A DNA stretch of 64,000 nucleotides from Alphaproteobacteria bacterium (GCA_016124955.1 WGMR01000007.1:32840-96839), one strand, 5' to 3'; counted from the stretch's first letter, positions 14,429 to 42,865 are shown. Translations and numbers: made by a program. Notes: generated by a model not told the origin, from the sequence alone.

Positions 14429-16054
14429 ATGGCAAAACCGGCGGTACAGCAACAACTTGAACAGGCGATGGCGCGGCACCGCGGCGGCGATCTTGGCGGC
14501 GCCGCCGGGCTTTACCAGCAAATATTGCAAACCGAGCCGGATAACGCCGATGCGTTGCACCTGCTTGGCGTGGTGGCGCGGCAAACCGGCAAGCACGCGC
14601 TGGCGCGCGAGCTGATCGACCGGTCGCTGGCCATCAATCCGCGCAACCCCGCCGCGCTTGCCAACAAGGCGCTGACGCTGCGCGAACAAAAAGATTATGC
14701 GGCCGCGATCGATGCCGCGCGGGCCGCGCTTGCGATCGACCCCGAGCATGCCGAAGCCTTCAGCAACCTTGCGGGGGCGCAATTTGCCCAGGGGCAGTAT
14801 GCGCTGGCGGCCGATACCTATCGTGCCGCGCTGCGCAGCCACCCGCGCGACGGCAATTTGTTGCAGGCGCTGGCGGCGGCGCTGGTCAAGACCGGCGAGC
14901 TGGCTGAAGCGCACGGTGCGATCAAACGCGCGCTGGCGGTTATGCCCGGCAATGCGCGTTGTTTCAATACGCTCGGTAATGTTTTGCGCGATGCCGGGCG
15001 TATCGAAGAAGCGATCGAAGCCTGGCGGCAGGCGCAGGCGGCTGACCCAGCGCATCAGCCCGCGCGCGTGAGCGAAGCGATGGCGCATATGCTGCTTGGC
15101 AGTTTTGCCGCCGGTTTGCCTTTATACGAAGCGCGCGGCGTGCCAGACCCGCGCTATGATGGCTTGCCGTTCTGGGACGGCGGTGCGCTGGACGGAAAAA
15201 CCATATTGTTGCGGGCCGAACAGGGTTTCGGCGATACGCTGCAGTTCATTCGCTATGTGCCGGAATTTTCCGCGCGCGCCGCCGCCGCCGGCGGGAAGCT
15301 GGCGGTGGAAGTGCAGGCGGCGCTGCTTGATATATGCCGGCCGCTGGCGCCGCAGGCGACATGGCTTTCGCCGCGCGATGCGTTGCCGCAGGTTAATGCG
15401 CAATACAGGTTGCTAAGCCTGCCGCTTTTGTTTGCCGCGAAGACAGGCAACATTCCCGCGCACACGCCTTATTTGGCGAGCGATGCGAACCGGCGCGCGG
15501 CGTGGAAAGAAAAACTTGCGGCGCGGCCGGGGCCGCAGATCGCGCTTACCTGGGCCGGCAACCCCGGCCATTTGAACGATCATAACCGTTCGCTGCAGCT
15601 GGAAACGCTTGCGCCGCTGCTGGACCGCTTCGCGCCGCATATTCTGCTTTTGCAGAAGGGTTTCGATACAAAAGATATGCTGGCGCGCTGGCCCGCACTT
15701 TCGGATGCGGGCAAGGAATGCGCCGATTTTTCCGACACGGCCGCTTTGCTCGATTGTTGCGATTTGCTGGTCGCGGTCGATACCGCGCCTGTGCATCTGG
15801 CGGGCGCGCTGGCGCGCCCGGCCTGGGTGCTTTTGCCTTATTGCCCCGATTGGCGCTGGATGCGCGGGCGCACGGACAGCCCTTGGTATCCGGGCATGCG
15901 GCTGTTCCGGCAGCGCGCACCGCGCGACTGGAGCGTTGTTATGGCGGATGTAACGGGTGAGCTTGAGAAGTTTGTGGGCGGCGACAGAAGCGTGCTCGCC
16001 CCGCCCGCGGGAGCGGCGCTGCAGGATGCGCCGCCGCCCGCCGGGCTAGGCTAA
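14429..16054 (+). CDS. TPR-repeat protein fused to GT9-like (heptosyltransferase-fold) glycosyltransferase domain; FlmG/FlbA-like putative flagellin glycosyltransferase
   Basis: N-terminal TPR repeats; C-terminal GFGDTLQF and VDTAPVHLAGALARPAWVLLP motifs typical of GT9; located beside flaF-flbT-flagellin. Confidence 0.6.
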   Translation: MAKPAVQQQLEQAMARHRGGDLGGAAGLYQQILQTEPDNADALHLLGVVARQTGKHALARELIDRSLAINPRNPAALANKALTLREQKDYAAAIDAARAALAIDPEHAEAFSNLAGAQFAQGQYALAADTYRAALRSHPRDGNLLQALAAALVKTGELAEAHGAIKRALAVMPGNARCFNTLGNVLRDAGRIEEAIEAWRQAQAADPAHQPARVSEAMAHMLLGSFAAGLPLYEARGVPDPRYDGLPFWDGGALDGKTILLRAEQGFGDTLQFIRYVPEFSARAAAAGGKLAVEVQAALLDICRPLAPQATWLSPRDALPQVNAQYRLLSLPLLFAAKTGNIPAHTPYLASDANRRAAWKEKLAARPGPQIALTWAGNPGHLNDHNRSLQLETLAPLLDRFAPHILLLQKGFDTKDMLARWPALSDAGKECADFSDTAALLDCCDLLVAVDTAPVHLAGALARPAWVLLPYCPDWRWMRGRTDSPWYPGMRLFRQRAPRDWSVVMADVTGELEKFVGGDRSVLAPPAGAALQDAPPPAGLG

Positions 16055-16057: not shown

Positions 16058-16501
16058 TTAGATCGAGGTCGAGACCGAACCCGGCTGCGTCTTTTCGGCC
16101 ACCGGAACGGCGTGCGCCTCGGTTTCCGGCTTGCCCGTCTGGACATTCAGGCCCGCCGCGATCTGGCGGTTGATGTCGATCAGGCTGGTGAGCAAGGCGG
16201 GGCTGTATTCCGCTTGCGCGCGCAAGGATACCTTATCGACGAAGCGGCTGAGGTTCAGCAACGTGATCTTCAGATCGCGCGGCAGGGGGTTATCGGGTTC
16301 GCACAGCGTGACCTGGAACACGGTCCAGAGCTGCTGGTTGTGGCGAATGGCGTCGAGATAAAACTCGGGCCCGCTTTCCGGGTTTTGCGCCTTGTGGAGG
16401 CGGCTGGCGCAGCTAAGCAACGCCTTGGCTTCCGTTTCGCGCACCGTTTCATTGACCTGCTGATGAGCTTTGTACGAACTGACTGGTGATTTGGTTACCA
16501 T
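16058..16501 (-). CDS. flaF: flagellar biosynthesis regulator FlaF
   Basis: Small helical protein directly downstream of flbT on same strand, canonical flbT-flaF pair. Confidence 0.65.
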   Translation of the reverse strand: MVTKSPVSSYKAHQQVNETVRETEAKALLSCASRLHKAQNPESGPEFYLDAIRHNQQLWTVFQVTLCEPDNPLPRDLKITLLNLSRFVDKVSLRAQAEYSPALLTSLIDINRQIAAGLNVQTGKPETEAHAVPVAEKTQPGSVSTSI

Positions 16502-18989: not shown

Positions 18990-20540
18990 ATGAAACCCGG
19001 CCGGTATGATCGGGCGATGCCGCTTCAGCACCCAACCGCCATCCAGGATCATGCCTCCGCGCTTGCGCAAGCGCGCGCGCAGCTGCAGGCCGGCGATGCG
19101 GCGGCCGCGCTGAAAACGCTGGACGATGCCCGCCGCGCCAGCCCGCAAAGCCCCGAAATATTGTTCATGATGGCCAACATCATGAACAATATGGGGCAAA
19201 GCGAGGGCGCGGTTCTGTTATACCGTCAGTTGCTTGGCCTGCGCCCGCGCGACCCGGGCATTTTGAACAATCTTGCCGGCGCCTTGCACGAGCTTGGCCG
19301 GCTGGATGAGGCAGACACCTATATAAGGGAGGCGCTGGCGTTGCGCGCCGACATGCCGGATTTGTGGGTAACGCAGGCGACGATCGACGATGTGCGCGGC
19401 CGCCGCGCCGAAGCGGAAACAAGCCTGCGCCGCGCGCTGGCGGCGCGCGGCGATCACCCGGTGGCGCTTGCCAACCTTGCCGCGCTGCTTTCGGCCCGTG
19501 GCGCGTATGACGAAGCGGAAAGAATGCGCGGGGCTGCGCGCGCGCAATTGGGCGACCGGCCGCGCCTGCTGGTGGCGCAGGCGAACGATTTCTTCCGCGC
19601 CGGGCGGCTTGGCGCGGCCTGGCCGCTTTACGAGGCGCGCTTTGCCGCTGCGCCCGGCGAACCGGCCATGGTAGCGGCGCGCGGTTTCGCGCAGCCCCGC
19701 TGGCGGGGCGAGAAGACCGGCGGGGCGCTGCTTGTGTGGGCCGAACAGGGTATCGGCGAAGAGATTATGTATGGCGCGCTTTTGCCCGAAGCGGCCGGGC
19801 GTTGCGCCCGGCTTGTCGCGGAATGCGATGCGCGGCTGGTTGAAATTTTTGCGCGGTCATTTCCGGGCGTGCAATGCATTGCGCGGCGCAGCCCGGCGGA
19901 CCCGCCCGACCCGCGCTGCGCCGCGGGCGACATTGCGGCGCAAATTCCGTTCGCCAGTCTTGGCGGCATTTTCCGCAACGGCGAAAAAGATTTTCCGCGC
20001 CACGAAGGTTATCTGAAGGCCGATGCGCCGCGCGCCGCCGCCCTTCGTGCCGATTATGCGGCACAGGCGGGGGAGGGGAAGACGCTGGTCGGCATTTCGT
20101 GGCGTTCAAAGCCGTATAAATACAGCGATCCGAAAAGCTCCGACCTGCAAGATTGGGAGGCGCTTTTGCGCGCGCCCGGCATCGTGTGCGTCAGTTTACA
20201 GTATGGCGATTGTAAAGCCGAACTGGAAGCCGCGCGCGCCGCGGGCGCGACAGTGCTGCATGACGATGCGATCGATCCGCTGCGCGACATGGATGCTTTC
20301 ATGGCGCAGGCGGCGGCGATGGACCGGATTGTGACGGTCAGCAACGCGACCGCGCATGTGGCGGGCGCGCTTGGCAAAACGGCGGATGTGCTTGTGCCGC
20401 ATGGCGGTGCCGCCCCGCCGCACTGGCAGGCCGAACGCGGCGATAGCCCGTGGTACCCGGCCTTGACGCTTTGGCGGCAGGACGCGCCGGGCGCGTGGCG
20501 CGGGCTTGTCGAACGAATTGCGGAAAATATGGCGCGGTGA
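18990..20540 (+). CDS. second TPR + GT9-like glycosyltransferase paralog (FlmG/FlbA-like)
   Basis: TPR repeats N-terminal; C-terminal GIGEEIMYGALL and SNATAHVAGALGKTADVLVP plus SPWYP motifs parallel to the 14429..16054 protein. Confidence 0.6.
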   Translation: MKPGRYDRAMPLQHPTAIQDHASALAQARAQLQAGDAAAALKTLDDARRASPQSPEILFMMANIMNNMGQSEGAVLLYRQLLGLRPRDPGILNNLAGALHELGRLDEADTYIREALALRADMPDLWVTQATIDDVRGRRAEAETSLRRALAARGDHPVALANLAALLSARGAYDEAERMRGAARAQLGDRPRLLVAQANDFFRAGRLGAAWPLYEARFAAAPGEPAMVAARGFAQPRWRGEKTGGALLVWAEQGIGEEIMYGALLPEAAGRCARLVAECDARLVEIFARSFPGVQCIARRSPADPPDPRCAAGDIAAQIPFASLGGIFRNGEKDFPRHEGYLKADAPRAAALRADYAAQAGEGKTLVGISWRSKPYKYSDPKSSDLQDWEALLRAPGIVCVSLQYGDCKAELEAARAAGATVLHDDAIDPLRDMDAFMAQAAAMDRIVTVSNATAHVAGALGKTADVLVPHGGAAPPHWQAERGDSPWYPALTLWRQDAPGAWRGLVERIAENMAR

Positions 20541-21392: not shown

Positions 21393-21859
21393 ATATCCTG
21401 CCCTGTGCCCTGCGGCTGTGCCGCAGTTCCGGTAGTCTTTTCCACCTTTCATCTTAACCTTGAGGCGCTAAGAAAGACTGAAAAATGCCAACAATCTTAT
21501 ATAGTTGAATGGGTTAGCATGGTTATCGGGGCCGCCGTATTTACGAAAAATTTATCATAATCGCCGTCCGCCCTTTTGTTTAAAGCCATACGAATCTTTG
21601 CAGAGTCAAAGGCTTGGTGGAAAAACCGGCTTCTTTTGCATGTTGCGGGGCGAGCGTTAACACAATTGCTACCATTTAAAAATATTGTAGCTGAACGGTA
21701 AAACGCCGCGCGACCGGCACCCCGTTATGGGGTTGTAGCCTGCGCTCATTGGGGATTGTTTCGTATCCGTGATTTGGTGTAAAACCGTACACGGGTGTTT
21801 TGGTGGTAACTTGATAAGGAAAGACTGTCGTGTCCCGTTTCGATTCTCCTGGTAGCGCC

Positions 21860-22378
21860 ATGTTTGCCGACGACGGCGAGCAGGTGAAAGCGGTAGTGAA
21901 GTGGTTCAATGGCGCCAAGGGTTTCGGCTTTGTCGCCCCCGCCGATGGTTCCGCAGACGCCTTCCTCCATATTTCCGTGCTTAACCGCGCCGGGATGCAG
22001 CAGATCGCCGAAGGCACCGAGCTTGCCGTTAAAATCGCGCAGGGCGCCAAAGGCCCGCAGGTCACCAGCATCGTTGAAGTTTTGGGCACCGCCCCGATCC
22101 CGCAAAGCGCCAGCAATGGTGGCGGCATGCGCATGGGCGGCGGACGCCCCGCCCCGACCGGGCCGGAGATCGAGATTGTCGGCACCGTCAAATGGTTCAA
22201 GCCCGACAAGGGTTTCGGTTTCGTCACCGCCGATGATGGTGACAAGGATATCTTCGTCCACAAAAGCATATTGCGCACCGCCGGCCTCGCCGACTTGCAG
22301 CCCGGTCAACGCGTGCAAATGAAGGTGCAGACGGCTTCCAAGGGCCGCGAAGCGACCTGGATCCAGTCCGCCGAATAA
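21860..22378 (+). CDS. tandem cold-shock-domain protein (two CSDs)
   Basis: Two copies of the VKWFNxxKGFGF RNP1 motif with FVH RNP2; long (about 400 bp) 5' leader as in csp genes. Confidence 0.8.
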   Translation: MFADDGEQVKAVVKWFNGAKGFGFVAPADGSADAFLHISVLNRAGMQQIAEGTELAVKIAQGAKGPQVTSIVEVLGTAPIPQSASNGGGMRMGGGRPAPTGPEIEIVGTVKWFKPDKGFGFVTADDGDKDIFVHKSILRTAGLADLQPGQRVQMKVQTASKGREATWIQSAE

Positions 22379-22464: not shown

Positions 22465-25400
22465 TTATTCCACGCTGATGCGCGCGGCTTCGCTGCGTGC
22501 CAGTATTGCGCCGGTTTCGCCATCGCTGACATTGGCGGCGGGCCAGCTATAGCCGCCCTTGCGCGCCGCGCGCACCAGATAGGCGAAGTGAAAATCCCGC
22601 CCTTGCAGCGGCGCGAGCTTTGCGGTGGCAGCGCCGGCGCCTGCCGCCGAAGCGATCTGCGCCGACAGATGCGGCATCCATCTGAACTGTCCCGATTGCG
22701 CGCCTTCCGCCAGCGGCAAACCGGCGGGCGCGAGCCCGCGCGGCAAGGCATCCTTGATGACAAGCGTTGTGCCCTGCGGCGGGCGCGTAAACGTGCCGTC
22801 GATAAGAACGACATAGGCCGCGCCGTTTTCTAGCTTGGCGGCGCGCGCCAGCATGCCGCCATCGATCCTGAACAGCCGCCGCGCGATACGCACGCCGTCT
22901 TTCGCGGGCGCGCGTTTGCCGGTTGCGGGTACAAGCGCGCAAGCGTGCAGAGCCCGCGTGCCGCGATTGGCAAGCGCAAGCGGGCCGTCTTTTCCGCCAT
23001 AACCGAGCAGGCGCAGGCCCGCGACCCTGTCGGGTTCGCCGCCGCCGGTCGCATATTCCCAAACGCCGGCGCGGCGCAAAAGCCGCATGAACAAGGCGGC
23101 CAGCCGCGCGCGCGTAATATCGCCGGTTTGTGCGGGGTCGATACGCGGGCCAAGTTCATCCCACAGCGGCAACAGTTCGTTGTTGGCGGTATCGTCATCG
23201 CCCGAAAGCAAGGCAACGGTGGCCAGCGCGGCATGAGGGTGATCGCGCAACAAAGAAGGCATTTGCGCCAGCGCGCGCGTGCGGTATTCGCTCGCTTCCG
23301 AAGCCGCGCCGCCCCGTGCGAGCGCGAAGGCAATTTGCGCTTCGGCCGGCGCCATGCGCGCGGCATTGCCGAAATTGCTGATAAAATAATGCAAAGCGCT
23401 GTTCCATGCGGCGGGCGGCACGGCTTCGGGCGACTGTGCCAGCGCGTAGAAGGCAAGCGCGCGCGCTTCCAGTTCGCGCTCCACTTCCCAGTTCTGATCG
23501 AGCCGTTTGATGACCCAGTCCGCCGCTTGCCGCGCCAGCACCGGCGGCGCCGCAGGGTTTTCCGCCATTGCCATCAGGGCGCCCGCCGTGGCGGCAAGGT
23601 CGCTTTCCCGTCCGTGCGGCGAAACCGCGAAACCGCCATCGCCCTGCTGGCGCTGCAGCAGCGATGCCGTCAGCTGTGCGCGCCTGCGTTCGATCACCGT
23701 GCGCGTGTACGGCAAATCCCCCGGCAGCCCGGCCGCAAGCCGCAACGCGACGATAATTTCGGCCATATCCTGCGTCGCCGCCGCATTCAGGCGCGGCAGG
23801 CCGGCGAGGATGGAAAGAAAGGGCGCGCCGCCAACGGACGAAAGCGCGATTTTCAGCGTGTCCGGCGCTTTGCCCGCTTTTTCCATGCCTTGCAATTTTC
23901 CGTGCAAGCTTTTCGCCGCCGCCGCGTTCGCGTTTTCGCCCGGCCCTATGGGCGGCAGGCAATATTGCTCCATGGCTTGCGCGGGCGCGGCGCCAGAAAT
24001 GACCGCGGGCTTCTTCGCGTCCGTATCTTCCAAAGGTTTCGCGGCCAGCATGGCATGCGCGTTCACTTCCTGCACCGCATCGCCGTTCTGCACGATGGCA
24101 TAGAAAAGCGTTGCGCCCGCGCTATCCGGCAGCCGGATTTGCGCGGCGGCGATGCCGGCACGATCGGTGCGCACAACTGCGCTGGCGGTGCTTCCGGCAC
24201 GGGCGGCCGGGGGAAAGGCCGCGCTTTTACCGGTTGTTTCGGCTTGTGCGGGCGAAAACACAAAACCATCGCTATCGCGCAAGGCAACGCGCACGGGCGC
24301 CGGGCGCTGCCACGCATCGCTTATGGGCGCAAAGCGCGTCGTTTCGCTGCGGGCCAGCGGCACGGCAACGATACGGACGGCGGTTTGTTCGCCGTTATCG
24401 GTGACGTTTACGGGAATGGCGGCGGTCCCGTCCGCGCGCATATCTTCGGGCAGCGCCAGGGTGACGGTTTCGGTCGCGGCGCTGAGCGGGAACCAAGCCG
24501 TGCCTTCGGCGCGGCGGGCCTCGCCGTCGTTTACGCCGGTTTGCTCGGTCGCGACCGCAAGAACATTGACGCCGCGCCGCCAATCCGCGCCGCTGGCAAC
24601 CTCGATGAACGCGCCGTCTTCGCCCACGGTGCGATCGATCACCTGCCGTACTTTATTATCGGCCAGCACAAGCATCACGCGTGCGGGCCAAGGCGGCGCC
24701 ACGAACAGCCAGCCCTTGTCGCCCGGCCGCAACGCCTGTTCCATGACGCTGAGCTTGACCTTGCCCGCCGCCAGGCTTTGCTTGCTTTCAAGCCACCAGC
24801 CGGCGCTGAAACGCAGCGCGCTCATGCTCGCCCGGCCTTCGCTGAAGACATCGAGCCGGTAGTGGCCCGCATGCACCGGAAGTTCAAGCCCCGTCTGCAT
24901 GCCGCCCGCGCCGCCGAGCTTGCCGCGCGCGATGAACAGATCGTGCGGCGCGGCGCGGTATTGCCACTGGCCTTCATGCTGGTACCAGGTAAAATGTTGC
25001 TGTTCTTCGACCAGTTCGTAGGTCAGCGCGGGCAGCGGGATACGCCGCCCGGCGGCGTCGGCGGCGATAAGGGTAAAACCGGCGAGCGCGTTTTCAGGCA
25101 CCGCATGGCCCGGAAAGGCCGGGATAATGCCGATCGCGACCGGCTGCGGGATGCGGGAAAGTGCCAACGGCGCGTTCGTTTCCGCCGCCTGCAGCGGCGG
25201 CGCGAGCCGCGCGGCGATAACGGCTTCCATCGGCGTGTGCGCCGCTTCGGGCGCGGGCGGCAGTTTTACGGCGACTTGCGCCGCGCCCTGCGCGTCGGTC
25301 GTGAAGGATGCGACCGGAACGGGTTCGGTTCCGCCTGCGGCGTAAATGCCGTATTCGGCCGCCTCGGCCGGCGTGCCTGCCTGCACGGCCGCGAAAGGCT

Positions 25401-26718
25401 TGCGTGTCGCGCGCCAGTGCGCCCATAGCCGCCCGCTTATATGCGCAGCCGCCCGCCCGGCGGTGTCTTTCACATGCAGTTGCAGAGAAACGCTTTCCCC
25501 GCCGCGCACATTGTGCTGCGCGCTTTCGATACCGACATCCAGCGCGCCTTGCCCGTCATCGACATCGAAAGGCGCGACCGCCAGCATTTTGCCGCTCGCA
25601 TCCAGCAGCCGCGCTTCCCATTTCCCGGTCGGCGCCCAGGCTGGCAGCGTGTATTCCGTGCCGACAAGCCCGCTGGCGCTTTCCAAAGGCAGTTCCGCCA
25701 TCACAAGGCCGCCCGCGCGTATAATTTGCACGAATGCGCCCGGCGCGACGGTTTCGCGCGCCGCCTGCTTGCGGATATTTTGCGCCGCCGCGCCGGCGGG
25801 CGGGGCGATGCCGGTCAAAATAACGGGCTGGCCCGGACGGTAGCGCCCGCGGTCCGCGAACAGCATGGAGGGGCCGGGCTCGGGCGCCGGGTGTTCGTCT
25901 TCCAGCTCAAGCGCGGTTACGCCGCCATCCGGCCCGTAGGCCAGAACGTGGCGCACGCGATCGTTGTTGGGCGTAAATTCTGGCTCAAGCGCGGCAACAA
26001 AGGCATGGCCTTGCGCATCCGTCACGGCGGACGCGAGGCCCGCATGTTCCGCGCCGCCAAGCCGCAACGTAACGTCTGCATAGGCCGCGCCGGTTGCGCG
26101 GTTGCGCGCATAGAAGTGCCAGCCATCTTCGGCGGTAACGGCGGTAAGCAGGATATCGCTGACCGTAAACCAATAGGCCGCATGCTTGCCGGGCACCGCA
26201 GCATCGGACGCTTCAAGCACATAAACGCCGCGGCGCATGCCGCGCGCGCCGCCCGCCATGGCGGCGGCGGGAACGGCGCGGTCAACCGCCTTGCCGTCTT
26301 CCGCGCCCGTGACCATTGTGCCGCGCCAAATGATATCGCCTTGCGCGGCCAGCAGGCCTGCTGCGTTATCGTCGCCAAGGCCTTGCTGGCGGCGGATGCG
26401 CGCCATGCGTTCGATCGCTTCGCGGTCCTTCAGTTCGTATAAAGCCAGCCGCACCAGCTGCACGCCGACCGTATGCAGCACCGGCCCGCCTTCTTCCGGC
26501 CCCGGCAGGAGCGCGCCGCCGCTCCGGAACGCCAGCGCGGCCGCGCCCGCCGTTTGCGGCCGGGGCGCCCGTTCTGCCGCCCGCGCCCCGGCGGCGCAGG
26601 CAAGCCATACGCACAGTGCCGGCAAAAGTGCGGGCAGCAGCGCGCGCAGGAAAAATTTCGTGCGGATTTGTGGCGGGCTCAGAAACATGACGCGCAATCT
26701 AGACCGTTTTATACGCAA
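22465..26718 (-). CDS. alpha-2-macroglobulin family protein (bacterial, thioester-less), probable lipoprotein
   Basis: 1417 aa; MG2-domain signature FADRGRYRPGQPVILTG; helical TED-like region near C-terminus; no CxEQ thioester motif in translation; N-terminal signal with Cys. Confidence 0.6.
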   Translation of the reverse strand: MRIKRSRLRVMFLSPPQIRTKFFLRALLPALLPALCVWLACAAGARAAERAPRPQTAGAAALAFRSGGALLPGPEEGGPVLHTVGVQLVRLALYELKDREAIERMARIRRQQGLGDDNAAGLLAAQGDIIWRGTMVTGAEDGKAVDRAVPAAAMAGGARGMRRGVYVLEASDAAVPGKHAAYWFTVSDILLTAVTAEDGWHFYARNRATGAAYADVTLRLGGAEHAGLASAVTDAQGHAFVAALEPEFTPNNDRVRHVLAYGPDGGVTALELEDEHPAPEPGPSMLFADRGRYRPGQPVILTGIAPPAGAAAQNIRKQAARETVAPGAFVQIIRAGGLVMAELPLESASGLVGTEYTLPAWAPTGKWEARLLDASGKMLAVAPFDVDDGQGALDVGIESAQHNVRGGESVSLQLHVKDTAGRAAAHISGRLWAHWRATRKPFAAVQAGTPAEAAEYGIYAAGGTEPVPVASFTTDAQGAAQVAVKLPPAPEAAHTPMEAVIAARLAPPLQAAETNAPLALSRIPQPVAIGIIPAFPGHAVPENALAGFTLIAADAAGRRIPLPALTYELVEEQQHFTWYQHEGQWQYRAAPHDLFIARGKLGGAGGMQTGLELPVHAGHYRLDVFSEGRASMSALRFSAGWWLESKQSLAAGKVKLSVMEQALRPGDKGWLFVAPPWPARVMLVLADNKVRQVIDRTVGEDGAFIEVASGADWRRGVNVLAVATEQTGVNDGEARRAEGTAWFPLSAATETVTLALPEDMRADGTAAIPVNVTDNGEQTAVRIVAVPLARSETTRFAPISDAWQRPAPVRVALRDSDGFVFSPAQAETTGKSAAFPPAARAGSTASAVVRTDRAGIAAAQIRLPDSAGATLFYAIVQNGDAVQEVNAHAMLAAKPLEDTDAKKPAVISGAAPAQAMEQYCLPPIGPGENANAAAAKSLHGKLQGMEKAGKAPDTLKIALSSVGGAPFLSILAGLPRLNAAATQDMAEIIVALRLAAGLPGDLPYTRTVIERRRAQLTASLLQRQQGDGGFAVSPHGRESDLAATAGALMAMAENPAAPPVLARQAADWVIKRLDQNWEVERELEARALAFYALAQSPEAVPPAAWNSALHYFISNFGNAARMAPAEAQIAFALARGGAASEASEYRTRALAQMPSLLRDHPHAALATVALLSGDDDTANNELLPLWDELGPRIDPAQTGDITRARLAALFMRLLRRAGVWEYATGGGEPDRVAGLRLLGYGGKDGPLALANRGTRALHACALVPATGKRAPAKDGVRIARRLFRIDGGMLARAAKLENGAAYVVLIDGTFTRPPQGTTLVIKDALPRGLAPAGLPLAEGAQSGQFRWMPHLSAQIASAAGAGAATAKLAPLQGRDFHFAYLVRAARKGGYSWPAANVSDGETGAILARSEAARISVE

Positions 26719-26744
26719 AGGAAATTGGCGCTTGCGGCGTGCGA

Positions 26745-29700
26745 TCAGGGTGCGGCTTCTGTGGCTTCCGCGGGCGCGCCTTCGGCGGGCATTTCGTCGC
26801 CCGCGCGATACTGGTTGAGGAAGTTGCGGAACATATCGACCTCGCCCATCTTGGATTGCAGCACCGCGAGATCCTGGATGTTGTCGGCCTTGGTGCGGGT
26901 GAGCAGGCGGAACACCTCGTTTTGCGGCGTGCCCGCCATGGCGGGGCCGAAATCGATTGCCAGGCGGTTGAGCGCCTGCTGGTCGGCCGCCAGCGCCAGC
27001 GCGGTGGCACGGTTGATAATGAACTGGATGCGATCGGGCTTGAGCTGCGTGCCCGGATCGGGCGGCGGACCGACGAGGCTGTCAAGCACTTCGGCCGCTT
27101 CGGACCAGTGCTTGGCGCGCCACGCGATATCGGCATGCAGCATGCGCGCCTGTTCGCTGCCGTCGTTGGCGAGCAGCAACAGCGCATCCTGGTCGCGGCC
27201 CAGTTCGGACAGCGCCCGTGCGCGCAAATACCGGCGTTCGGATTTCACTTTTTCGCTCACATCCTCGGCCGTGCTGATTTCGAGCGCGGTGAGCGCCAGT
27301 TCGGGCTTTTGATCGAGCAGGCGAATGCCCGCGAGCCGCGCACCGACCTCGGCCTTGCGTTCGCCTTTCAGCCGTTCCCGGACCTGCGCGGTCAGCAGAT
27401 CGGCCGCCTGATCGAGCAGATCGATCGACACCAGCCGTTCGGCAAGGTTGCGGACCACGGCTTCGCCATCAGGGCCGGGCGGGATCAGATCACGGAATTC
27501 CTCATAGAGCGCCAGCGCCTCAATCGGCGAAAGGTCCGGCGCGGCATTTTCAATAAAAATGGCGCGGAAACTTTCGACCATGCGTTCATGCACATCGCGC
27601 ACCTGCGGGCTATCCGGGTGCATCTGGATGCCGTGGCCGAGCGTGGTCAGGCCTTCCTTGTATTTGCCGCCATCAAGATAGTAACCGCCGAGGCGGCTTA
27701 AAATATCGAGTTCGAGTTCGTCGCCGCGCCAGCTGTAACGCATTCCTTCAAGCCGCTTGGCGGCATCGAGCGGCTGCATGTTGCCTTCGGCGACATCAAG
27801 ATCGATCAAGGCCAGCTCGGCCCGTGTGCGGTAAAGCCTGTCGTTGCCAATCGCAACTTCGTGCCAATAGGTGCGGGCATGGTCATCGCGATTGAACTGA
27901 TGTTCGATCACGCCGCGCAGATATTTGATGGCCGGCAGATCGTCGAGCCGCGCATCGGGGCGTTTGTTGCCGAGCTGATCGAGCCAATCGTACGCTTCGC
28001 GCGCCCGATCCTGCGCCAGCGCGGTTTCGATCGCCATCACCGTCATGCGGCTGAAGAACGGCTCCGGATACTGTTCGAGCACGCGCAAGGTGCTTTTGAA
28101 GAGCGGGTAGGCGGGCGCAAACAAGCGTTGCTTGGCGAGCGCATAGGCGCGCCAGAGCGGAATTTCGTCTTCGCCCTTCAGGTCGTCATGATCGAGATCG
28201 GCGAGCCCGCCGACCATATCATCGCCCACAATACGCGCCGCGCCGCGCAGGGCCACGAATTCGGGCCGCGAGGTCAGCGCCGGCAGCCGTTCTTCCAGCA
28301 TCTTGAGCAGGCCGAGCGATTCGAGCGCCATGCCGTTGGCAAAATATAGCCGGGCGAGTTCGAGCCGTGCGCGGTCGCGCTCGACATCCGGCACATCGAC
28401 GATGGTTTGCGACAGGCGCTGGCGCGCGGTGGTGAAGCTTTCCCCCGGCTTGCCGCGCCATGTATTGAGATCGAAAAGCCGCAGTTTGGGCGCACCCGTA
28501 CCTGACGCCAACTGTCCCTTGCCGCGCTGACCGGTATCGGAGGGTGGCGAGAGCTTGAGGCCGTTCTTGGCCGTAATTTCGATACCGTCCGGCGTATGGC
28601 GCGCGACCACGTTTTCGTTGACCGGCCGGATCACCATGCCTTGCGCGGTCGGCAGCACATCGAGATCGGCGAAGCCGCGCGGGATCGCGGCCATTTCTCC
28701 CGGGCGCGGCAGCGGCACGACGATCAGCGCTTCCCCCGTGACCGGATCATTCATGCGCACGGGTTCGGCGGCGTCCACCACCGGCAGGATAAGGCGCGCG
28801 CCGAGCGCGTAATCGGGTTCCGGCACCAGCGCCAGCGTGATCGGGATTACCTGCCGGGTTTTAGCGAGGCGCACATCCCAGCCCGTACCTTCGCGCCGGA
28901 CCTGCAGCGTGGCTTCGGCCGCCATGCGGAAGCGATAGCCGGTGACGCCGGGCAGCCGCAGGCGTTGCAGTTTGCCGCGCGGCTGGCCGGCCAGCGTGTT
29001 GGCCTGATCTTCCGGCAGCTTGCGATCGAGGATGATGTAGGCGTAGCCACCGCGTTCATAGACCGCGATCGCCATGCTGACGCCGATATCGAAACGCGCC
29101 ACGCTGATCGCGGCGTCGCCGCTATCGGCGAGCTGAAGGATGCCGGTGCCGTCATCCGGCACCGCGGTTTCCGCGCCCAGTTCGCTGCGCGGCGGGGGCG
29201 GCGTGGCCGCCGGTTCTTCCTTGACGGGTTCGGGTTCGGGTACGGGCGGCGGCGCGGGCGGCGGAGGCTGGGTTAGCGGGCCCGAGGTTGTATCGATCAG
29301 CAATTCAGGCGCGCCCGGGCCCGGGCCGGGCTTTTCCAAAGCTGGCGGCGCGGGTTCGGCTTTTGCGGGTGCAGGTGTGGGTGCGGAAGGCGGTGCCGGT
29401 TCGGGCGGCGGCGGCGCGGGTTCGGTTTTTGCCGGTTCGGATTTAACGGGTTCCGCCGCGGGCGGCTGTGCCGCCGGGGCCGGCGCGGCTTTCGCGACCT
29501 TGCCCGCGTTTTCAAGCTTTGCCGTGCCGGTAACATCAATCACGACATAGGTGCCGGTTGTAAAATCTTTCAGCTTCGCGCCTTCGGGCACGGTAAAAAC
29601 AAGGCTGGCGTTTTCGCCGCTGCGCGCCGCGTAATTGCCGCTGCGCTGCAGGCGGGCGTTTGCAAGCTTTTGCAGATCAAAGCTTGCGGGCGCATCGAAG

Positions 29701-30170
29701 CTGACCGTCACTTCGTTGCCCGCGCGACCTACCTTATAGGCAACCTTGCGCGGCCAATCGAACACGATGCGATCAAAATCGGCATGCAGGCCGCCGCGCA
29801 CCGTGATGTCCGGGGTTTGGGCGGCAGGGGTTTTGACGGCGGCGGCCGGGGGCGCCGCCGGTGCGGGGGCCGGTGGGGCGGGTTCGGGCGCGGCGGGCGC
29901 CGGCGCCATGGCGGGCGCGCCAGCCGGATCGGTTTTGGCAGGTTCTGCCGGGGCAGATTCAGCGGATTGGCCTTGTTGTTCCTGTGCCGTTGCGGAAGCG
30001 GAATAAAATAACAGGCCGAGCGCCAAAAGCGCAGCGATCATGCCCGGCGCGGCAAGGGCGGGGGATACTTGCTTTGAAGGCGGTACATGTGCGGACATAA
30101 GGCGAACCGGTGCGGTGAAACGGCTTAAATGCCAGAATGAATCAAACCGCCGCCGGGGACAAGCCGCCAA
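26745..30170 (-). CDS. large (1141 aa) predicted periplasmic protein: signal anchor, two beta-rich domains separated by Pro/Ala-rich linkers, long C-terminal TPR-like helical region
   Basis: MIAALLALGLLFYSASA signal/anchor; PAPAAPEPAPPAP and PPPPAPPPVPEPEP linkers; helical-repeat C-terminal 600 aa; only 9 bp after cheZ stop. Confidence 0.55.
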   Translation of the reverse strand: MAACPRRRFDSFWHLSRFTAPVRLMSAHVPPSKQVSPALAAPGMIAALLALGLLFYSASATAQEQQGQSAESAPAEPAKTDPAGAPAMAPAPAAPEPAPPAPAPAAPPAAAVKTPAAQTPDITVRGGLHADFDRIVFDWPRKVAYKVGRAGNEVTVSFDAPASFDLQKLANARLQRSGNYAARSGENASLVFTVPEGAKLKDFTTGTYVVIDVTGTAKLENAGKVAKAAPAPAAQPPAAEPVKSEPAKTEPAPPPPEPAPPSAPTPAPAKAEPAPPALEKPGPGPGAPELLIDTTSGPLTQPPPPAPPPVPEPEPVKEEPAATPPPPRSELGAETAVPDDGTGILQLADSGDAAISVARFDIGVSMAIAVYERGGYAYIILDRKLPEDQANTLAGQPRGKLQRLRLPGVTGYRFRMAAEATLQVRREGTGWDVRLAKTRQVIPITLALVPEPDYALGARLILPVVDAAEPVRMNDPVTGEALIVVPLPRPGEMAAIPRGFADLDVLPTAQGMVIRPVNENVVARHTPDGIEITAKNGLKLSPPSDTGQRGKGQLASGTGAPKLRLFDLNTWRGKPGESFTTARQRLSQTIVDVPDVERDRARLELARLYFANGMALESLGLLKMLEERLPALTSRPEFVALRGAARIVGDDMVGGLADLDHDDLKGEDEIPLWRAYALAKQRLFAPAYPLFKSTLRVLEQYPEPFFSRMTVMAIETALAQDRAREAYDWLDQLGNKRPDARLDDLPAIKYLRGVIEHQFNRDDHARTYWHEVAIGNDRLYRTRAELALIDLDVAEGNMQPLDAAKRLEGMRYSWRGDELELDILSRLGGYYLDGGKYKEGLTTLGHGIQMHPDSPQVRDVHERMVESFRAIFIENAAPDLSPIEALALYEEFRDLIPPGPDGEAVVRNLAERLVSIDLLDQAADLLTAQVRERLKGERKAEVGARLAGIRLLDQKPELALTALEISTAEDVSEKVKSERRYLRARALSELGRDQDALLLLANDGSEQARMLHADIAWRAKHWSEAAEVLDSLVGPPPDPGTQLKPDRIQFIINRATALALAADQQALNRLAIDFGPAMAGTPQNEVFRLLTRTKADNIQDLAVLQSKMGEVDMFRNFLNQYRAGDEMPAEGAPAEATEAAP

Positions 30171-30179: not shown

Positions 30180-30848
30180 CTAGCTTCCCATCAGCTTGTC
30201 GATATCGTCCTGGCTAACGGCGCTTTCCGGCAATTGCGGGCCGTTGAGCAGCGCCTTGTGCGGATCGAGGATCGCTTCGTCATCGTCTTCGCCCGCAGGT
30301 GCATCGCTGCCATCATGGCCGAGCGCCTTGAGCAGAGCTTCGACCTTGTTTTCGATATGCTTGAGCGCGTTCACAACCTTGGTGATGCGCTGGCCGGTGA
30401 TATCCTGAAAGTTGCAGGCTTCGAAGATGCGCGTGACGCATTCGGTCAGCTGCGTGCCCGGATCGCCTTCGAGCCCGCCGGCGATCAGGCCGATCTTGTC
30501 GCATTCGTCCATGATTTTGTTGGTCGCATCCTCGGTTGCGCCGACGACGGCATCAAGCTCGACCGTAGCGGTCGGGATGTGCTTGTCGCCGATTTCCTTC
30601 GGGCGGATCGCGGCCACTTCTTGCTTGGCGTTGCGGATGAAGCGGGCGAGATCTTCGATTTCATGCACCATGCGTGCGTCCGCGCCCGGCTGGTCGCCGA
30701 TGAAGCTTTTCATCACCTGCTCAACAATCTTGGCAACTTCGGCGCGCGCAATCGGCTCCTTGCCCTTGGCAACGGCGTCCATGATGCGCTTTTGCAATTC
30801 AGTGCCGGTCGCATTTGCATCGCGGGGCATGTTGGCGGTGGTGTTCAT
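30180..30848 (-). CDS. cheZ: CheZ-like CheY-P phosphatase
   Basis: CNFQDITGQRI matches the CheZ catalytic FQDLTGQ motif; follows cheY on the same strand. Confidence 0.7.
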   Translation of the reverse strand: MNTTANMPRDANATGTELQKRIMDAVAKGKEPIARAEVAKIVEQVMKSFIGDQPGADARMVHEIEDLARFIRNAKQEVAAIRPKEIGDKHIPTATVELDAVVGATEDATNKIMDECDKIGLIAGGLEGDPGTQLTECVTRIFEACNFQDITGQRITKVVNALKHIENKVEALLKALGHDGSDAPAGEDDDEAILDPHKALLNGPQLPESAVSQDDIDKLMGS

Positions 30849-30868: not shown

Positions 30869-31255
30869 TCAGAATGCGCCGAGTACTGCGGTGATTTTCT
30901 GCTTCAGCGTTTCGGCGTTAAAGGGCTTGACGATATAATTATTGACACCGGCTTCCTTGGCGGTGGCGACGTTTTCGACTTTGCTTTCGGCCGTGACCAT
31001 AATGAAGGGAAGCGCCTTGAGCTTGGTGTCGGCGCGGACTTCCTGCAAAAGCTGGAGGCCGGTCATCGGTTCCATGTTCCAGTCCGAGATCACGAGGCCG
31101 AATGTGCCCTCGCGCAGCAGTTTGAGCGCGGCGCTGCCGTCGGCGGCGTCCTGCACATTTTTAAAGCCGAGCTGCTTGAGTAGATTGCCGATAATGCGGC
31201 GCATGGTGTTGTAGTCGTCAACCACCAGGACATTCATGTTCATATCGACAGCCAT
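30869..31255 (-). CDS. cheY: chemotaxis response regulator CheY
   Basis: Single receiver domain, 128 aa, with DD, phospho-acceptor D (VISDWNMEPMTG), T and K (IVKP) in CheY-like spacing. Confidence 0.85.
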   Translation of the reverse strand: MAVDMNMNVLVVDDYNTMRRIIGNLLKQLGFKNVQDAADGSAALKLLREGTFGLVISDWNMEPMTGLQLLQEVRADTKLKALPFIMVTAESKVENVATAKEAGVNNYIVKPFNAETLKQKITAVLGAF

Positions 31256-31510: not shown

Positions 31511-32329
31511 TCAGGGCACGGCCGGCAGGGTATGCGATTCCGTCAGCGCGGTCGTGATGTCCTTGGCGCGTTCCGGGGTCATTTCCGCGAGGATCGGCGC
31601 GGATTTCACCGGCTTCATGGAACGGATAACGCCGAGCAGGATCGACATATCGAGGTTGGATAGGATGCGCGCCGCTTCAGCCGGTTTCATGCTTTCGTAA
31701 ATTTTCACGAGATTGTTCAGCTCGGCAACGCGTTCTTCGTCCACCGTCGTGATCAGCCCTTCGAGCTGGGTGCGGAGCTGCTCCATTTCGCGGATTTTCT
31801 GATCGACGCGCTGTTCGGTTGCCTGCAAAAGCGCGCCGCGGGTTTGCATTTCCTGTTCGCGCTCGTCAAGCTGGCGGCGGCGCTGCGAAAGCTGTTTCAG
31901 GATCTCGACCTCGCCCTTGCTTAGATCCGCGCTGTTGTATTCGTAGTTCGCTTGCGGAGCGGGGGCGGGCTCCTGCTGTTGCTGCGCGCCGGGTACTTCG
32001 ACCGCGGGCGCGCCCGTTTCGCCATGTCCGCCTGCCGTATTGGCTGCCATTTTCGTGGTTTCGGGGGCCGGATGATTATCCGCATGCGCATCCGGGTTGT
32101 CTTTTGCCGATGCAAGGGCATCGGGCCTGTCTTTTGCCGATGCAAGGGCATCGGCGGGTGCCTTGTCGGTATGTGTATCCTTGGCTTCGGCTTCGGCGCG
32201 GGTCACGATCGAAGCGTCGGAGCCGCGCACCGCAACATCCCATAAATCAGCGGCGCGTGCGCCCATCACCAGCACCGCGATGAAGATCGCGGCGGTGAGA
32301 AAGAAGCGCGGGCGCACGAAGCGGAACAT
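31511..32329 (-). CDS. MotE / MgtE-N-domain family flagellar protein (periplasmic)
   Basis: Signal peptide; coiled-coil region; C-terminal KPAEAARILSNLDMSILLGVIRSMKPVKSAPILAEM resembles MgtE-N/MotE family. Confidence 0.55.
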   Translation of the reverse strand: MFRFVRPRFFLTAAIFIAVLVMGARAADLWDVAVRGSDASIVTRAEAEAKDTHTDKAPADALASAKDRPDALASAKDNPDAHADNHPAPETTKMAANTAGGHGETGAPAVEVPGAQQQQEPAPAPQANYEYNSADLSKGEVEILKQLSQRRRQLDEREQEMQTRGALLQATEQRVDQKIREMEQLRTQLEGLITTVDEERVAELNNLVKIYESMKPAEAARILSNLDMSILLGVIRSMKPVKSAPILAEMTPERAKDITTALTESHTLPAVP

Positions 32330-32332: not shown

Positions 32333-32854
32333 CTACGACCTCAGTTTCCGGAGCGCCTGCATCAGCTCGCGCTCGGCGCGCGATTTGACGTGGGCATCTT
32401 CCATGCTGGTTTCGGCCAGGTCTTCGCCCGTTTGTGCCGCCGCGGTGCCGCCCGCGCCTGCTGCGCCGCTTGTTGCGCGTGCGGGCTGCGGCTGCGCCGC
32501 TGCAATCGGGTTTTGGGCGGGCTGGCGCATCTGCACGCTCATGCTGCTGATGCGCTCGGCCAGCTTATCGGCATGTTCGACCACGAAACGCAATTCATCG
32601 CGCATGGTCTGCGAACGTTCGATCAGGCGTTCAAGATCGTCGCCGCTGTCGCGCGCGACTTCCTTAAGGCCCTTGATGCCGGCTTCGGCGCGGTTCACGG
32701 TGGAACCGAAATCATGGACGAAACGCTCCATTTCGGCGCGCGAGGCGCGAATGCCGGAGAGATGCCGCTCGACCCGGATGGCATAAAAAATCCCCGCCAC
32801 GATCAGGCCGATCAGCGTGATATCGAGAAGGCTGCGCAATACGAGTTCAATCAT
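32333..32854 (-). CDS. hypothetical flagellar-cluster membrane protein (N-terminal TM, coiled coil)
   Basis: 173-aa ORF between fliM and motE-like gene, 4-bp spacing. Confidence 0.45.
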   Translation of the reverse strand: MIELVLRSLLDITLIGLIVAGIFYAIRVERHLSGIRASRAEMERFVHDFGSTVNRAEAGIKGLKEVARDSGDDLERLIERSQTMRDELRFVVEHADKLAERISSMSVQMRQPAQNPIAAAQPQPARATSGAAGAGGTAAAQTGEDLAETSMEDAHVKSRAERELMQALRKLRS

Positions 32855-32868: not shown

Positions 32869-34026
32869 CTAATTCGACTGCTTTTTATTGTCGTGCAGCG
32901 CCGCATGCTCGACCTTGACCGCGATGTGGCCGTTACGGCTGCCCATGCGGCCCTTGAACATCGGCAATTCGCCCGCGCGCACCTCGACCACGTCGTTGGG
33001 CGATACGTTGAGCATAATTTTCGAGCCGACTTTCCAGTTCATAATGTCGCCGAGCGCGATGCTGACCTCGTCGAGCACGGCGTGCAGATCCATATCGGTT
33101 TGCAAAAGCTCGCTGCCCAGATGGGTTTCCCAGATGCTGTCGCGGCCGAACTTTTCGCCCATGAACATCTGCAGCAAAAGCTCGCGGATCGGTTCCAGCG
33201 TGGCATAGGGGATTAAAATCTCGATGCGCCCGCCGCGGTCTTCCATATCGATGCGGAGCTTGGCCAGCACGGCGGCGTTGGCCGGGCGGGCGATGGTGGC
33301 GAAGCGCGGGTTGGTTTCAAGCCGGTCGAAGCGGAAGGTGACGGGCGAAAGCGGATCGAACGCGCCGGAAAGATCGGCCAGCACCACGCGCACGAGCCGT
33401 TCGATCAGGCCGCGTTCGATCGTGGTATAGGGCCGGCCTTCGATACGCATGGCCGACGAGCCGCGACGGCCGCCGAGCAGCACATCGACGATCGAATAGA
33501 TCATCGAGCTATCGACCACCATCAGGCCGGAATTATCCCATTCTTCCGCCTTGAACACCGTAAGCATGGCGGGCAGCGGGATGGAATTGAGGTAATCCCC
33601 GAAACGGACGCTTGAGATTTGATCGAGGCTGACCTCGACGTTGTCGGAAGTGAAGTTGCGCAGGCTGGTGGTCATCATGCGCACGAGCCGGTCGAACACC
33701 ACTTCGAGCATCGGCAGGCGTTCGTAATTGACCAGCGCGCTGTTGATCAGCGCCATGATGCCGGATGTTTCCCCGCCGCCGCCCGCGCTGTCGAAACCGA
33801 GCAGGCTGTCGATCTCGTTCTGGCTCAGGACCCGCTCTTCACCGCCATCGGCTGCCATCGCCGCCGCCATGTCGTCGCCGCCCGCCATTGCGGCGGCCAT
33901 ATCGTCCTCGCCGCCTGCCGCCATCGCCGCCGCCATATCGTCCTCGCCGCCCGCAGGTTTTGACGTGGCCGCGACGGCCGCGAGCGCGGCTTTTTCCTCG
34001 TCGGTGGTTTTATCGTCGTCAGCCAT
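32869..34026 (-). CDS. fliM: flagellar motor switch protein FliM (with N-terminal acidic repeat extension)
   Basis: CheY-binding LSQNEIDSLLG motif; FliM middle and C-terminal SpoA-like domains; N-terminal GGEDDMAAAMA tandem repeats. Confidence 0.9.
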   Translation of the reverse strand: MADDDKTTDEEKAALAAVAATSKPAGGEDDMAAAMAAGGEDDMAAAMAGGDDMAAAMAADGGEERVLSQNEIDSLLGFDSAGGGGETSGIMALINSALVNYERLPMLEVVFDRLVRMMTTSLRNFTSDNVEVSLDQISSVRFGDYLNSIPLPAMLTVFKAEEWDNSGLMVVDSSMIYSIVDVLLGGRRGSSAMRIEGRPYTTIERGLIERLVRVVLADLSGAFDPLSPVTFRFDRLETNPRFATIARPANAAVLAKLRIDMEDRGGRIEILIPYATLEPIRELLLQMFMGEKFGRDSIWETHLGSELLQTDMDLHAVLDEVSIALGDIMNWKVGSKIMLNVSPNDVVEVRAGELPMFKGRMGSRNGHIAVKVEHAALHDNKKQSN

Positions 34027-34038: not shown

Positions 34039-34641
34039 TCATTGCACCAGCATTTCCTGGAACAGCACATCGCGCACGCGTGCCGGGTGCGCGGCTTCGG
34101 TGACGCGCATCAGAAGTTCTTCGCGCAAACGGTAGATGCCGGCCGAACCTTTAAGATCGTCGATCCGCAGTTCGCGCAGGTATATCTGGAAGTTGTCGAG
34201 GATGCGCGGGCGGATCTGGTCCATCAGCGGGATATCCTTGGCGCTGCCCAGCTCGAGCGAGACCTTGATTTTGAGATAGTTGGGGCGCTTGCCGTCGCCG
34301 CTAAGGTTCACGAGGATATCGCCAAGATCGTAAAATACAGCCGAGGCGTTTTCCTGCGCCTTGCGCGCGGCTTCCGCCGCCGCCTGCGCTTCTTCCGTGC
34401 TCATTTCTTCCTTGCCGCCGATGATGCCGCTGAAATACAGGCCGGCGCCGCCGCCAAGCACGAGCACCAGCGCGACCACGCCGATGACAATAAACTTCTT
34501 CTTGCCGGACATCAGGCCCGATAGGCCCTTTTTCTCCCCGGCTTCCGCGCCTTCCGCGCCTTCTTCGCCTTCTTTCTTTTCTTCTTCGGCGGTTTTGTCT
34601 TCTTCTTCAGCCATAACGCTCACATCCTGTTTGCGCGCCAC
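34039..34641 (-). CDS. fliL: flagellar basal-body-associated protein FliL
   Basis: Acidic N-term, single TM (FIVIGVVALVLVLGG), conserved FliL C-terminal region (YLKIKVSLEL...). Confidence 0.8.
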   Translation of the reverse strand: MARKQDVSVMAEEEDKTAEEEKKEGEEGAEGAEAGEKKGLSGLMSGKKKFIVIGVVALVLVLGGGAGLYFSGIIGGKEEMSTEEAQAAAEAARKAQENASAVFYDLGDILVNLSGDGKRPNYLKIKVSLELGSAKDIPLMDQIRPRILDNFQIYLRELRIDDLKGSAGIYRLREELLMRVTEAAHPARVRDVLFQEMLVQ

Positions 34642-42003: not shown

Positions 42004-42783
42004 TCAGGGCGCGCCGCCGGCCGGTTCTTGCGCGGCCGGTTGCAGGCTGAAATCCTTATAGACCGGCGTTTCCGCGCCATCGTTCGCGGCGGCATCGGGC
42101 ACCAGATCGCTCAGGTTCGGGCCTTCGTCGCGCCTGATCACGGCGCCCTGCGCCTTGTCGCGCAACTGCCGCATCAGCGCATCCTGCTTTTGTCTGTCGG
42201 TATCGCGCGCTTCGCCTTTTTGCTTGCGGCCATAGGGCTGGGCCACGTTGAAATCGGTGACGAAGCTGCGCGCAAGCTTTTCGGTCGCTTGCAATATGCC
42301 CTGGTCATGCACGCTTTGCCTTGTGCCGAGCATCAGGCCTTCGCGCCAGTAGGTGACCGTGAAGTTGCGGCGTTCTTCTACCGGCGGCAGGCGCGCGGCG
42401 TGGCGCCCTTCGGCCACCAGTTCGATATAAGACGCGCAAACCAGCGTGCCGTCGTTGTAGGTCGTGATTTCCGGCGTCAGCGTAATGCGCACGGCGGTGG
42501 TCAGCGCCGGCTTGGCGGTGGCGGCGCGCAGCGCCGTCAGGCCCATATCTTCCAGCACCTCGTGTGCGCGCTCCTCGACCTCGTTGCGGCGGATGCCGCA
42601 GGCTTCGGACGCTTTCGGATCGGTGATGCGCGTGTAATTGACCAGAATTTCAGTGACGCCATAAAGTGCCGGCGCGCCACCGCGCGTGCTTTCGGCCTGC
42701 GCCGGCGCCGCGGGCAGCAGCGCGGCCAGCAAAACCAGCAGCAACGGGGCGAAGGGGCGCAGGGATGGCCGGGCGATGTTCAT
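42004..42783 (-). CDS. hypothetical periplasmic protein
   Basis: Signal peptide MNIARPSLRPFAPLLLVLLAALLPAAPAQA; no recognisable domain. Confidence 0.5.
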   Translation of the reverse strand: MNIARPSLRPFAPLLLVLLAALLPAAPAQAESTRGGAPALYGVTEILVNYTRITDPKASEACGIRRNEVEERAHEVLEDMGLTALRAATAKPALTTAVRITLTPEITTYNDGTLVCASYIELVAEGRHAARLPPVEERRNFTVTYWREGLMLGTRQSVHDQGILQATEKLARSFVTDFNVAQPYGRKQKGEARDTDRQKQDALMRQLRDKAQGAVIRRDEGPNLSDLVPDAAANDGAETPVYKDFSLQPAAQEPAGGAP

Positions 42784-42865
42784 GCCGCGACTATAATGCA
42801 TCAGACGCTGACGGGGAAGCGGGCAGGGACGGGCGCGGTTTTGCGGCCCCGCTGTTCCGGCCGGT

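Follow-up and report, generated by a model that had tools for sequence, protein, structure and literature searches.

In the present study, we analysed a minus-strand gene, here called X, which lies at positions 26745..30170 of a 64,000-nucleotide stretch of DNA (the window) from an Alphaproteobacteria bacterium (GCA_016124955.1 WGMR01000007.1:32840-96839). The open reading frame (ORF) encodes a MotK/PflA-like protein of 1141 amino acids (aa) when it is read from a TTG codon, and it is the last gene of a minus-strand operon with the order fliL-fliM-DUF6468-motE-cheY-cheZ-X. An earlier note, made by a first reading of the same DNA, had described a secreted protein with an N-terminal signal or anchor, beta modules, proline-rich spacers and a long helical tail. 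Both the ORF and this architecture proved to be real, and all of the named parts were found. The same note could place the protein in no named flagellar family. This did not hold, as the protein groups with the partner proteins of MotE and FlgY, namely PflA, MotK, MotC and CC_2058. Protein X is probably a Sec-exported periplasmic accessory of the flagellar motor and the long Rhodospirillales form of the MotK/CC_2058/PflA class.

Results

The ORF of X was accepted as a real gene because a protein homologue search returned 91 homologues of 900-1350 aa. Its GC content at third codon positions (GC3, 0.73) is in line with that of the other genes of the window. The stop codon of cheZ lies 10 nt upstream of the TTG, and two alternative starts, M25 (30098) and M44 (30041), are available; as judged from the sequence, either of these may be the true start instead of the TTG. 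The public gene call (P0001, 1054 aa; L089 1171-4335) begins at M88, and in this way the signal is dropped from the protein. It is the only identical public protein and comes from the Logan assembly of SRR10063240. Several ORFs lie over X on the opposite strand (26739-27701, 28596-29276 and others) and were treated as high-GC artefacts, because it is the minus-strand gene that is backed by homologues.

A genome scan was carried out with 18 closer sequences on one genome per species (GTDB species representatives). At least 515 species genomes carried a relative, and no homologue in the scan exceeded 42 % identity to protein X; for this reason the lineage to which the window belongs seems to be poorly sampled. 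The 80 genomes retrieved were almost all labelled as Rhodospirillales in the broad sense or as unclassified alphaproteobacterial metagenome-assembled genomes.

Residues 38-58 (APGMIAALLALGLLF; mean Kyte-Doolittle hydropathy 2.2) form the sole strongly hydrophobic segment of the protein, and a canonical A-x-A site (ASATA/QEQ) stands directly after it. From the hydropathy scan and the reading of this motif, residues 38-62 (29985..30059, minus strand like all parts of X) are predicted to be a Sec signal peptide, possibly retained as an uncleaved N-terminal anchor. Such a signal peptide would suit a start at M25 or M44. On such a heuristic reading, one hydrophobic segment followed by an A-x-A site, the protein has the features expected for periplasmic export. 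Together with the flagellar gene neighbourhood, the hydrophobic segment bears out the earlier view of a secreted or periplasmic protein associated with the flagellum.

For the remainder of the chain, an AlphaFold2 (AF2) model was built on a 43-sequence alignment. The mean predicted local distance difference test score (pLDDT) was 79.4, with 708 residues at 90 or above, and all folded parts were modelled with confidence. In this model, residues 1-115 were disordered except for the hydrophobic helix (46-56), and the Ala/Pro-rich segment at residues 63-118 (29817..29984; 38 % A, 27 % P) had a pLDDT below 50. It is followed by module 1 at residues 119-216 (29523..29816; DITVRGG...VVIDVTG), an AMIN-like beta-sandwich of pLDDT about 96 with strands throughout, nine by DSSP. 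The earlier note had raised the question of whether the beta modules are AMIN-like, and this reading was supported. The window protein itself matched the Pfam AMIN-like family PF24837 below threshold (E 0.07; 13.7 bits, where the cutoff is 27), 14 of the 43 family members matched it at E<=0.01 (best 9.6e-8), and in a profile search of PDB sequences the family profile matched the AMIN region of PilQ with E 7.8e-5.

Between module 1 and the next folded part lies a Pro-rich disordered linker, residues 217-352 (29115..29522; 30 % P, 19 % A; pLDDT <50). Rigid spacers that set a periplasmic distance had been proposed for this region. The linker measures anything from 37 to 349 residues among the 43 homologues, so it is not a ruler of fixed length; Pro and Ala make up 50-70 % of it in most of them, and it behaves as a variable low-complexity tether. 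Module 2, residues 353-440 (28851..29114; AAISVARFD...YAYIILD), is a diverged AMIN-like module. The similarity of the two modules, also noticed earlier, was confirmed by profile-profile alignment with HHalign (residues 118-218 against 350-440; probability 98.1 %, E 1.2e-13). In addition, an extra N-terminal AMIN-like copy is present in 22 of the 43 homologues and is missing from the window protein, and the long Rhodospirillales form carries up to three AMIN-like modules and a family-specific beta domain.

This beta domain occupies residues 441-540 (28551..28850), with invariant D475 and G511 and near-invariant P476 and G479, and it was unrelated to either AMIN-like module by profile-profile comparison. 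Module 2 and the beta domain together (residues 345-545, the central module, in which W431 is invariant as well) gave a separate AF2 model with a pLDDT of 89.5. Foldseek found no significant neighbour of this model in the PDB (best E 0.07; PilQ 3jc8 at E 0.14), and HHalign found no counterpart of it in the Rhodobacterales motK-slot family. Used alone, the central module retrieved 1098 cluster representatives; in the 150 matches listed, fragments aside, it lies 200-550 residues from the N-terminus of proteins of about 950-1300 aa. Because of this constant position in proteins of similar size, we regard residues 345-545 as a family-specific domain.

After a short hinge (residues 541-575 in the AF2 model), the C-terminal half is a TPR-like (tetratricopeptide repeat-like) alpha-superhelix at residues 576-1095 (26886..28445), with Pfam TPR_19 at 687-745. 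Helices span residues 576-1125 in the model, about 30 in number (about 15 pairs) and mostly with pLDDT >90, and no strand is found among them, in agreement with the long helical-repeat region described earlier. Residues 1096-1141 (26748..26885) form a long conserved helix, in which F1117 is invariant in an 18-sequence alignment (A4), and then an acidic disordered tail. Single-sequence searches of Pfam, NCBIfam and the PDB returned TPR_19 and noise only, and no secretin, LysM or amidase domain was found by Pfam or NCBIfam.

The genes of the operon upstream of X all lie on the minus strand. At the head of the operon are fliL (34039-34641) and fliM (32869-34026), followed by a gene of the Pfam family DUF6468 (32333-32854), which holds the same position as pflI in the Caulobacter and Paracoccaceae operons, as their order is given in the literature. 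The pflI-position proteins of three Rhodobacterales loci (L004-L006) had no Pfam match, and no paper mentioning DUF6468 was found in the literature search. The next gene (31511..32329) is of the MotE/FlgY/FlbB type, with a Pfam MgtE_N domain and an N-terminal signal or transmembrane (TM) segment. Its product matched the NCBIfam FlbB model with E 1.2e-7, which is below the model cutoff, and it aligns to the protein in the motE slot of locus L004. MgtE_N proteins of this kind, MotE, FlgY and FlbB, form the periplasmic E-ring (PMC13023049), and the MotE of the window is the presumed E-ring partner of protein X. Finally, cheY (30869-31255) and cheZ (30180-30848) stand between motE and X.

The order fliL-fliM-DUF6468-motE-(cheY)-cheZ-X was also found in Azospirillum brasilense, Magnetospirillum moscoviense and Falsiroseomonas tokyonensis. 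When genes on the same strand were counted in the 65 loci with at least 6.5 kb of upstream sequence, the homologue of X was preceded by CheZ in 57, by FliM and by FliL in 53 each, by MotE in 51 and by CheY in 25. In two deeper homologues (P0055 and P0051), X stands directly after motE without cheYZ, as CC_2058 stands after CC_2059. In Azospirillum, the interval from cheZ to X is occupied by a tandem pair of MotB-like genes (MotB_plug plus OmpA), which stand directly upstream of X. The A. lipoferum locus (L019) holds the block cheZ-motB-motB-X with no fliLM-motE genes upstream, and in ten similar Azospirillum loci CheZ alone was found upstream by tblastn. A genetic link thus joins X to motE and, within Azospirillum, to motB-like genes as well. 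As separate observations, many Rhodospirillales (loci L002, L003 and L050-L086) have cheY and cheZ inserted after motE and before the spoke gene, within an operon of flagellar structural genes, and the tandem MotB-like genes were located at 8575-9995 of L001 and 5231-6903 of L019, with an OmpA-like domain in one.

It had been considered earlier that the protein could belong to a characterised non-flagellar family with non-flagellar synteny elsewhere. This was not borne out, and flagellar synteny was found in almost all loci. A non-flagellar envelope protein, such as a type IV pilus or secretin-associated protein, a cell-division protein (with septal or peptidoglycan localisation through AMIN) or a partner of alpha-2-macroglobulin (A2M), could stand beside flagellar genes by chance, and the AMIN domain is in fact best known from PilQ and AmiC, the former being matched by our profile. 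A weak AMIN-containing match (P0095) also lies in a non-flagellar context, and an A2M-like gene begins 27 nt downstream of X in the window. Nevertheless, flagellar synteny is kept in at least 80 genomes, which belong to many genera, and the similarity to PilQ is confined to the AMIN domain. The A2M gene was downstream in none of 62 other loci for which 4 kb or more of downstream sequence was available, and the downstream genes vary (Kup, AdoMet decarboxylase, fliP). A non-flagellar origin is thus very improbable, and a non-flagellar AMIN protein or A2M partner was rejected, largely by synteny. P0095 shares the AMIN domain alone with protein X.

The co-occurrence of X with the A2M gene, which had been put forward earlier as a point to follow, was accordingly seen in 0 of the 62 loci, and the adjacency is specific to the lineage of the window; the same neighbour is also present on the identical Logan contig. 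The A2M-like gene itself (22465-26718, minus strand, 1417 aa) contains MG2, bMG3, bMG6 and bMG10 domains. It has no CxEQ thioester motif, and none of the genes annotated in the window was a pbpC-like partner.

The placement of protein X within the spoke class was obtained by sequence and structure comparison. When the family profile was searched against 5.8 billion sequences, the matches listed were mostly members of the same family; among them were three distant proteins (P0092, P0093 and P0097; E 1e-18 to 3e-5), all of them in the slot fliL-(pflI position)-(motE position)-motA-X, which is the motK slot of Rhodobacterales. The motK-slot family, represented by a 24-sequence Paracoccaceae alignment, was then compared with the family of X by HHalign. 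The helical domains aligned with a probability of 99.9 % (E 2.7e-34, 405 columns) and the AMIN domains with 98.6 % (E 5.5e-16). CC_2058 (958 aa) was sought among representatives of similar length, and metagenomic proteins only were found.

The full AF2 model was also compared by Foldseek with 350,542 PDB chains. The first-ranked chain was 9hmf_K (E 1.4e-9, 832 columns), a chain of 773 residues from the periplasmic scaffold of the Campylobacter jejuni flagellar motor, and generic eukaryotic TPR proteins ranked after it with E 1e-7 or worse. A second scaffold chain, 9hmf_L (683 residues), was found at rank 43 (E 1.5e-5). By chain lengths and the paper, we infer that 9hmf_K is PflA (residues 16-788) and 9hmf_L is PflB. 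The significance of the second match would suit a PflB-like rim protein, tethered to the inner membrane by an uncleaved segment, with the TPR array as a circumferential ring that cages the stators. The single hydrophobic helix (38-58; AF2 helix 46-56) points in the same direction, and one protein may do both jobs, most alphaproteobacteria having a single TPR protein of this kind (10.1101/2025.02.19.638559). We consider this arrangement unlikely, because PflA is ahead of PflB by four orders of magnitude in Foldseek E-value, a canonical A-x-A site (ASATA/QE) follows the hydrophobic segment, and the N-terminal sandwich, linker and TPR region have the PflA/MotK layout with no strands in the helical region. 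The layout of PflB is different, with a TM segment and a beta-hairpin within the TPRs (10.1101/2025.02.19.638559), and PflB-type proteins have no beta-sandwich at the N-terminus.

Further flagellar genes were found in the window around the operon of X. The genes flgF-flgG-flgA-flgH lie opposite the operon, and flgI, fliX, flgD, flgE, flgK, a flagellin-like gene in the flgL position, flagellin and flaF are also present. A 541-aa protein (14429-16054, plus strand), encoded beside flaF (16058-16501, minus strand), has a TPR array at its N-terminus and, in its C-terminal part, a weak glycosyltransferase-9-like match; we take it to resemble the FlmG-type flagellin glycosyltransferases. Another TPR protein is encoded at 18990-20540, close to the flagellin gene. 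Two minus-strand ORFs of the flagellar region, 48033-49643 (536 aa) and 42004-42801 (265 aa), had no Pfam or NCBIfam match, and the first of these, abutting flgD, may encode a flagellar protein, for example one of hook length. The gene at 21830-22378 (plus strand) encodes a protein of 182 aa that contains a tandem pair of cold-shock domains.

Discussion

In recent years, a number of periplasmic TPR proteins have been recognised as partners of the E-ring. These include MotC of S. meliloti, MotK of C. sphaeroides, CC_2058 of C. crescentus, PflA of Campylobacterota and FlcB of Borrelia (PMC13023049). In MotK (652 aa), a signal peptide and an N-terminal AMIN-like domain are combined with Pro-rich segments and TPR-like helices. 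The protein binds both MotE and MotB2, is needed for rotation, and is encoded in the order fliL-pflI-motE-motA-motK (PMC10954123). The CC_2058 mutant is Mot- (PMC10954123, PMC13023049, 10.1101/2025.02.19.638559). In PflA, an AMIN-like sandwich and a flexible loop are joined to 16-17 TPRs, which form radial spokes (PMC12222027; 10.1101/2025.02.19.638559). It docks on FlgY (PMC12222027; PMC13023049; 10.1101/2025.02.19.638559), and its sandwich and loop bind PflB, not peptidoglycan (PMC12222027; 10.1101/2025.02.19.638559).

Protein X has the traits of this class, namely an AMIN-like sandwich with a Pro-rich linker, a C-terminal TPR superhelix and a motE gene in the same operon. The assignment was made because synteny, the linkage to stator genes, homology, the structure match, the literature and prior cataloguing agree. 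Protein X is probably an uncharacterised and elaborated member of a recently recognised spoke class, and it is not a new kind of system.

Several points weigh against this assignment. The sequence homology covers the positional equivalents of MotK and not MotK (Q3IY86) or CC_2058 themselves. No sequence similarity to PflA was seen in the HMMER profile search of PDB sequences, which returned generic TPRs and PilQ only. The Foldseek superposition on 9hmf_K is globally poor (TM-score 0.16-0.21, root-mean-square deviation 32 A). A low global TM-score is expected for flexible multi-domain chains, and the PflA match therefore rests on local 3Di similarity, rank and coverage. No motA or motB was found within the 64-kb window. 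In addition, the central module is a part of the protein with no known structural counterpart, and any role given to it is a guess. Furthermore, the literature search found no in-situ structure, cryo-electron tomography or experimental data on any Rhodospirillales motor.

By analogy with the known spoke proteins, the C-terminal superhelix of about 15 TPR-like repeats would form radial spokes that dock on the co-operonic MotE ring around the MS-ring. At the other end of the protein, the AMIN-like domain on its variable Pro/Ala tether may serve as an anchor for the outer end, with peptidoglycan or a partner protein as the attachment site. The central beta module could add a further contact, most plausibly with periplasmic MotB or FliL, and the spoke, the anchor and the central contact together would recruit the stator units or position and stabilise them. 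If the stators are positioned in this way, loss of protein X should give assembled but paralysed flagella, as with motK, CC_2058 and pflA. The physical contacts, the peptidoglycan binding and the mutant phenotype are those which we infer from these relatives.

The TPR arrays that are common among chaperones and adaptors allow another use of the same helices, in which protein X would be a periplasmic assembly factor or chaperone-like adaptor, acting transiently on MotE, MotB or another flagellar protein. Weak, sub-threshold NCBIfam matches to SctY, a type III secretion system chaperone, and to BamD-type TPRs are in favour of this, and MotE and MotC were first read as chaperone and client (PMC13023049). 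Such a transient helper seems quite improbable for a large protein with about 15 repeats, from a family with one to three AMIN-like anchoring domains. Its operonic position among structural genes is strict, and the MotK-family and PflA proteins are motor-localised and structural (PMC13023049, PMC10954123, PMC12222027).

A more elaborate form of the spoke reading may also be considered, in which the long form is a single-polypeptide scaffold that serves as a spoke like PflA, as a rim like PflB and as an anchor to peptidoglycan, with the central module gripping MotB directly. We hold this only as a tentative and rather doubtful extension. If true, it would make a distinct periplasmic stator cage, and the Azospirillum order cheZ-motB-motB-X would mark a dedicated stator-scaffold module.

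The periplasmic scaffolds that hold the stators decide the torque which a flagellar motor can deliver. The idea of an ancient and widespread E-ring and spoke assembly dates only from 2024-2026 and is based on work in Campylobacterota, in spirochaetes and in two or three alphaproteobacteria. The family of protein X provides a large and sequence-coherent test set for this model in Rhodospirillales and their allies, and some of its hosts, among them Azospirillum, Magnetospirillum and R. centenum, are tractable. The family further illustrates the elaboration of the spoke protein by extra AMIN copies and a new beta domain. Transfer of the annotation would be useful, because the public names of all members seen read 'hypothetical' or 'TPR repeat protein', and one member is mislabelled. 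This is the Azospirillum fermentarium homologue (P0009), named 'putative negative regulator of RcsB-dependent stress response'; the name was probably carried over in error from a match of the TPR_21/YfgM type.

Comparison with known systems

The AMIN domains of PilQ and AmiC (PF11741/PF24837) share fold and profile similarity with residues 119-216 of protein X and, more weakly, with residues 353-440. Beyond the AMIN domain, neither the protein nor its gene neighbourhood has any relation to pili or cell division. MotC of Sinorhizobium meliloti (434 aa) and FlcB of Borrelia burgdorferi, which were likened to protein X by description only, are periplasmic TPR partners of MotE and FlbB, respectively, and are needed for motor function; both are much shorter than protein X, and MotC has no AMIN domain.

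PflA of C. jejuni and Helicobacter pylori (9HMF chain K) is alike in layout, with a sandwich, a linker and a TPR superhelix, and its ring partner FlgY (MgtE_N) corresponds to the MotE encoded in the operon of X. PflA has one beta-sandwich and works together with PflB, PflC/D and the basal disk; no PflB equivalent for protein X was identified in this analysis. CC_2058 (958 aa), encoded after motE/CC_2059, shares the operon logic fliL-fliM-pflI-motE-X, which is kept exactly in P0055 and P0051. CC_2058 is also reported to have an AMIN-like N-terminus, as in protein X, and a predicted structure that resembles PflA, a comparison made by description only.

MotK of the Cereibacter sphaeroides Fla2 system (RSWS8N_12065, Q3IY86; PMC10954123) shares with protein X the signal peptide, the AMIN-like domain, the Pro-rich linker and the TPR-like helices, and both genes lie within a fliL...motE operon. 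Protein X is about 500 aa longer, with more helices, and it has a second AMIN-like module and a beta domain (353-540) which the Rhodobacterales motK-slot family lacks. Its gene is preceded by cheY-cheZ, whereas motK is preceded by motA.

Proteins of similar size from related genera have already been tabulated as potential PflA homologues (10.1101/2025.02.19.638559). The supplementary table of this 2025 preprint lists TPR proteins adjoining FlgY homologues, among them those of Skermanella pratensis (1031 aa), Rhodospirillum centenum (1102 aa), Sneathiella (1143 aa) and Magnetospirillum magneticum (1168 aa), together with CC_2058 of Caulobacter (958 aa), MotK (652 aa) and MotC (434 aa). The sizes and genera in that table agree with the family of protein X, for example with its Skermanella stibiiresistens homologue of 1038 aa.

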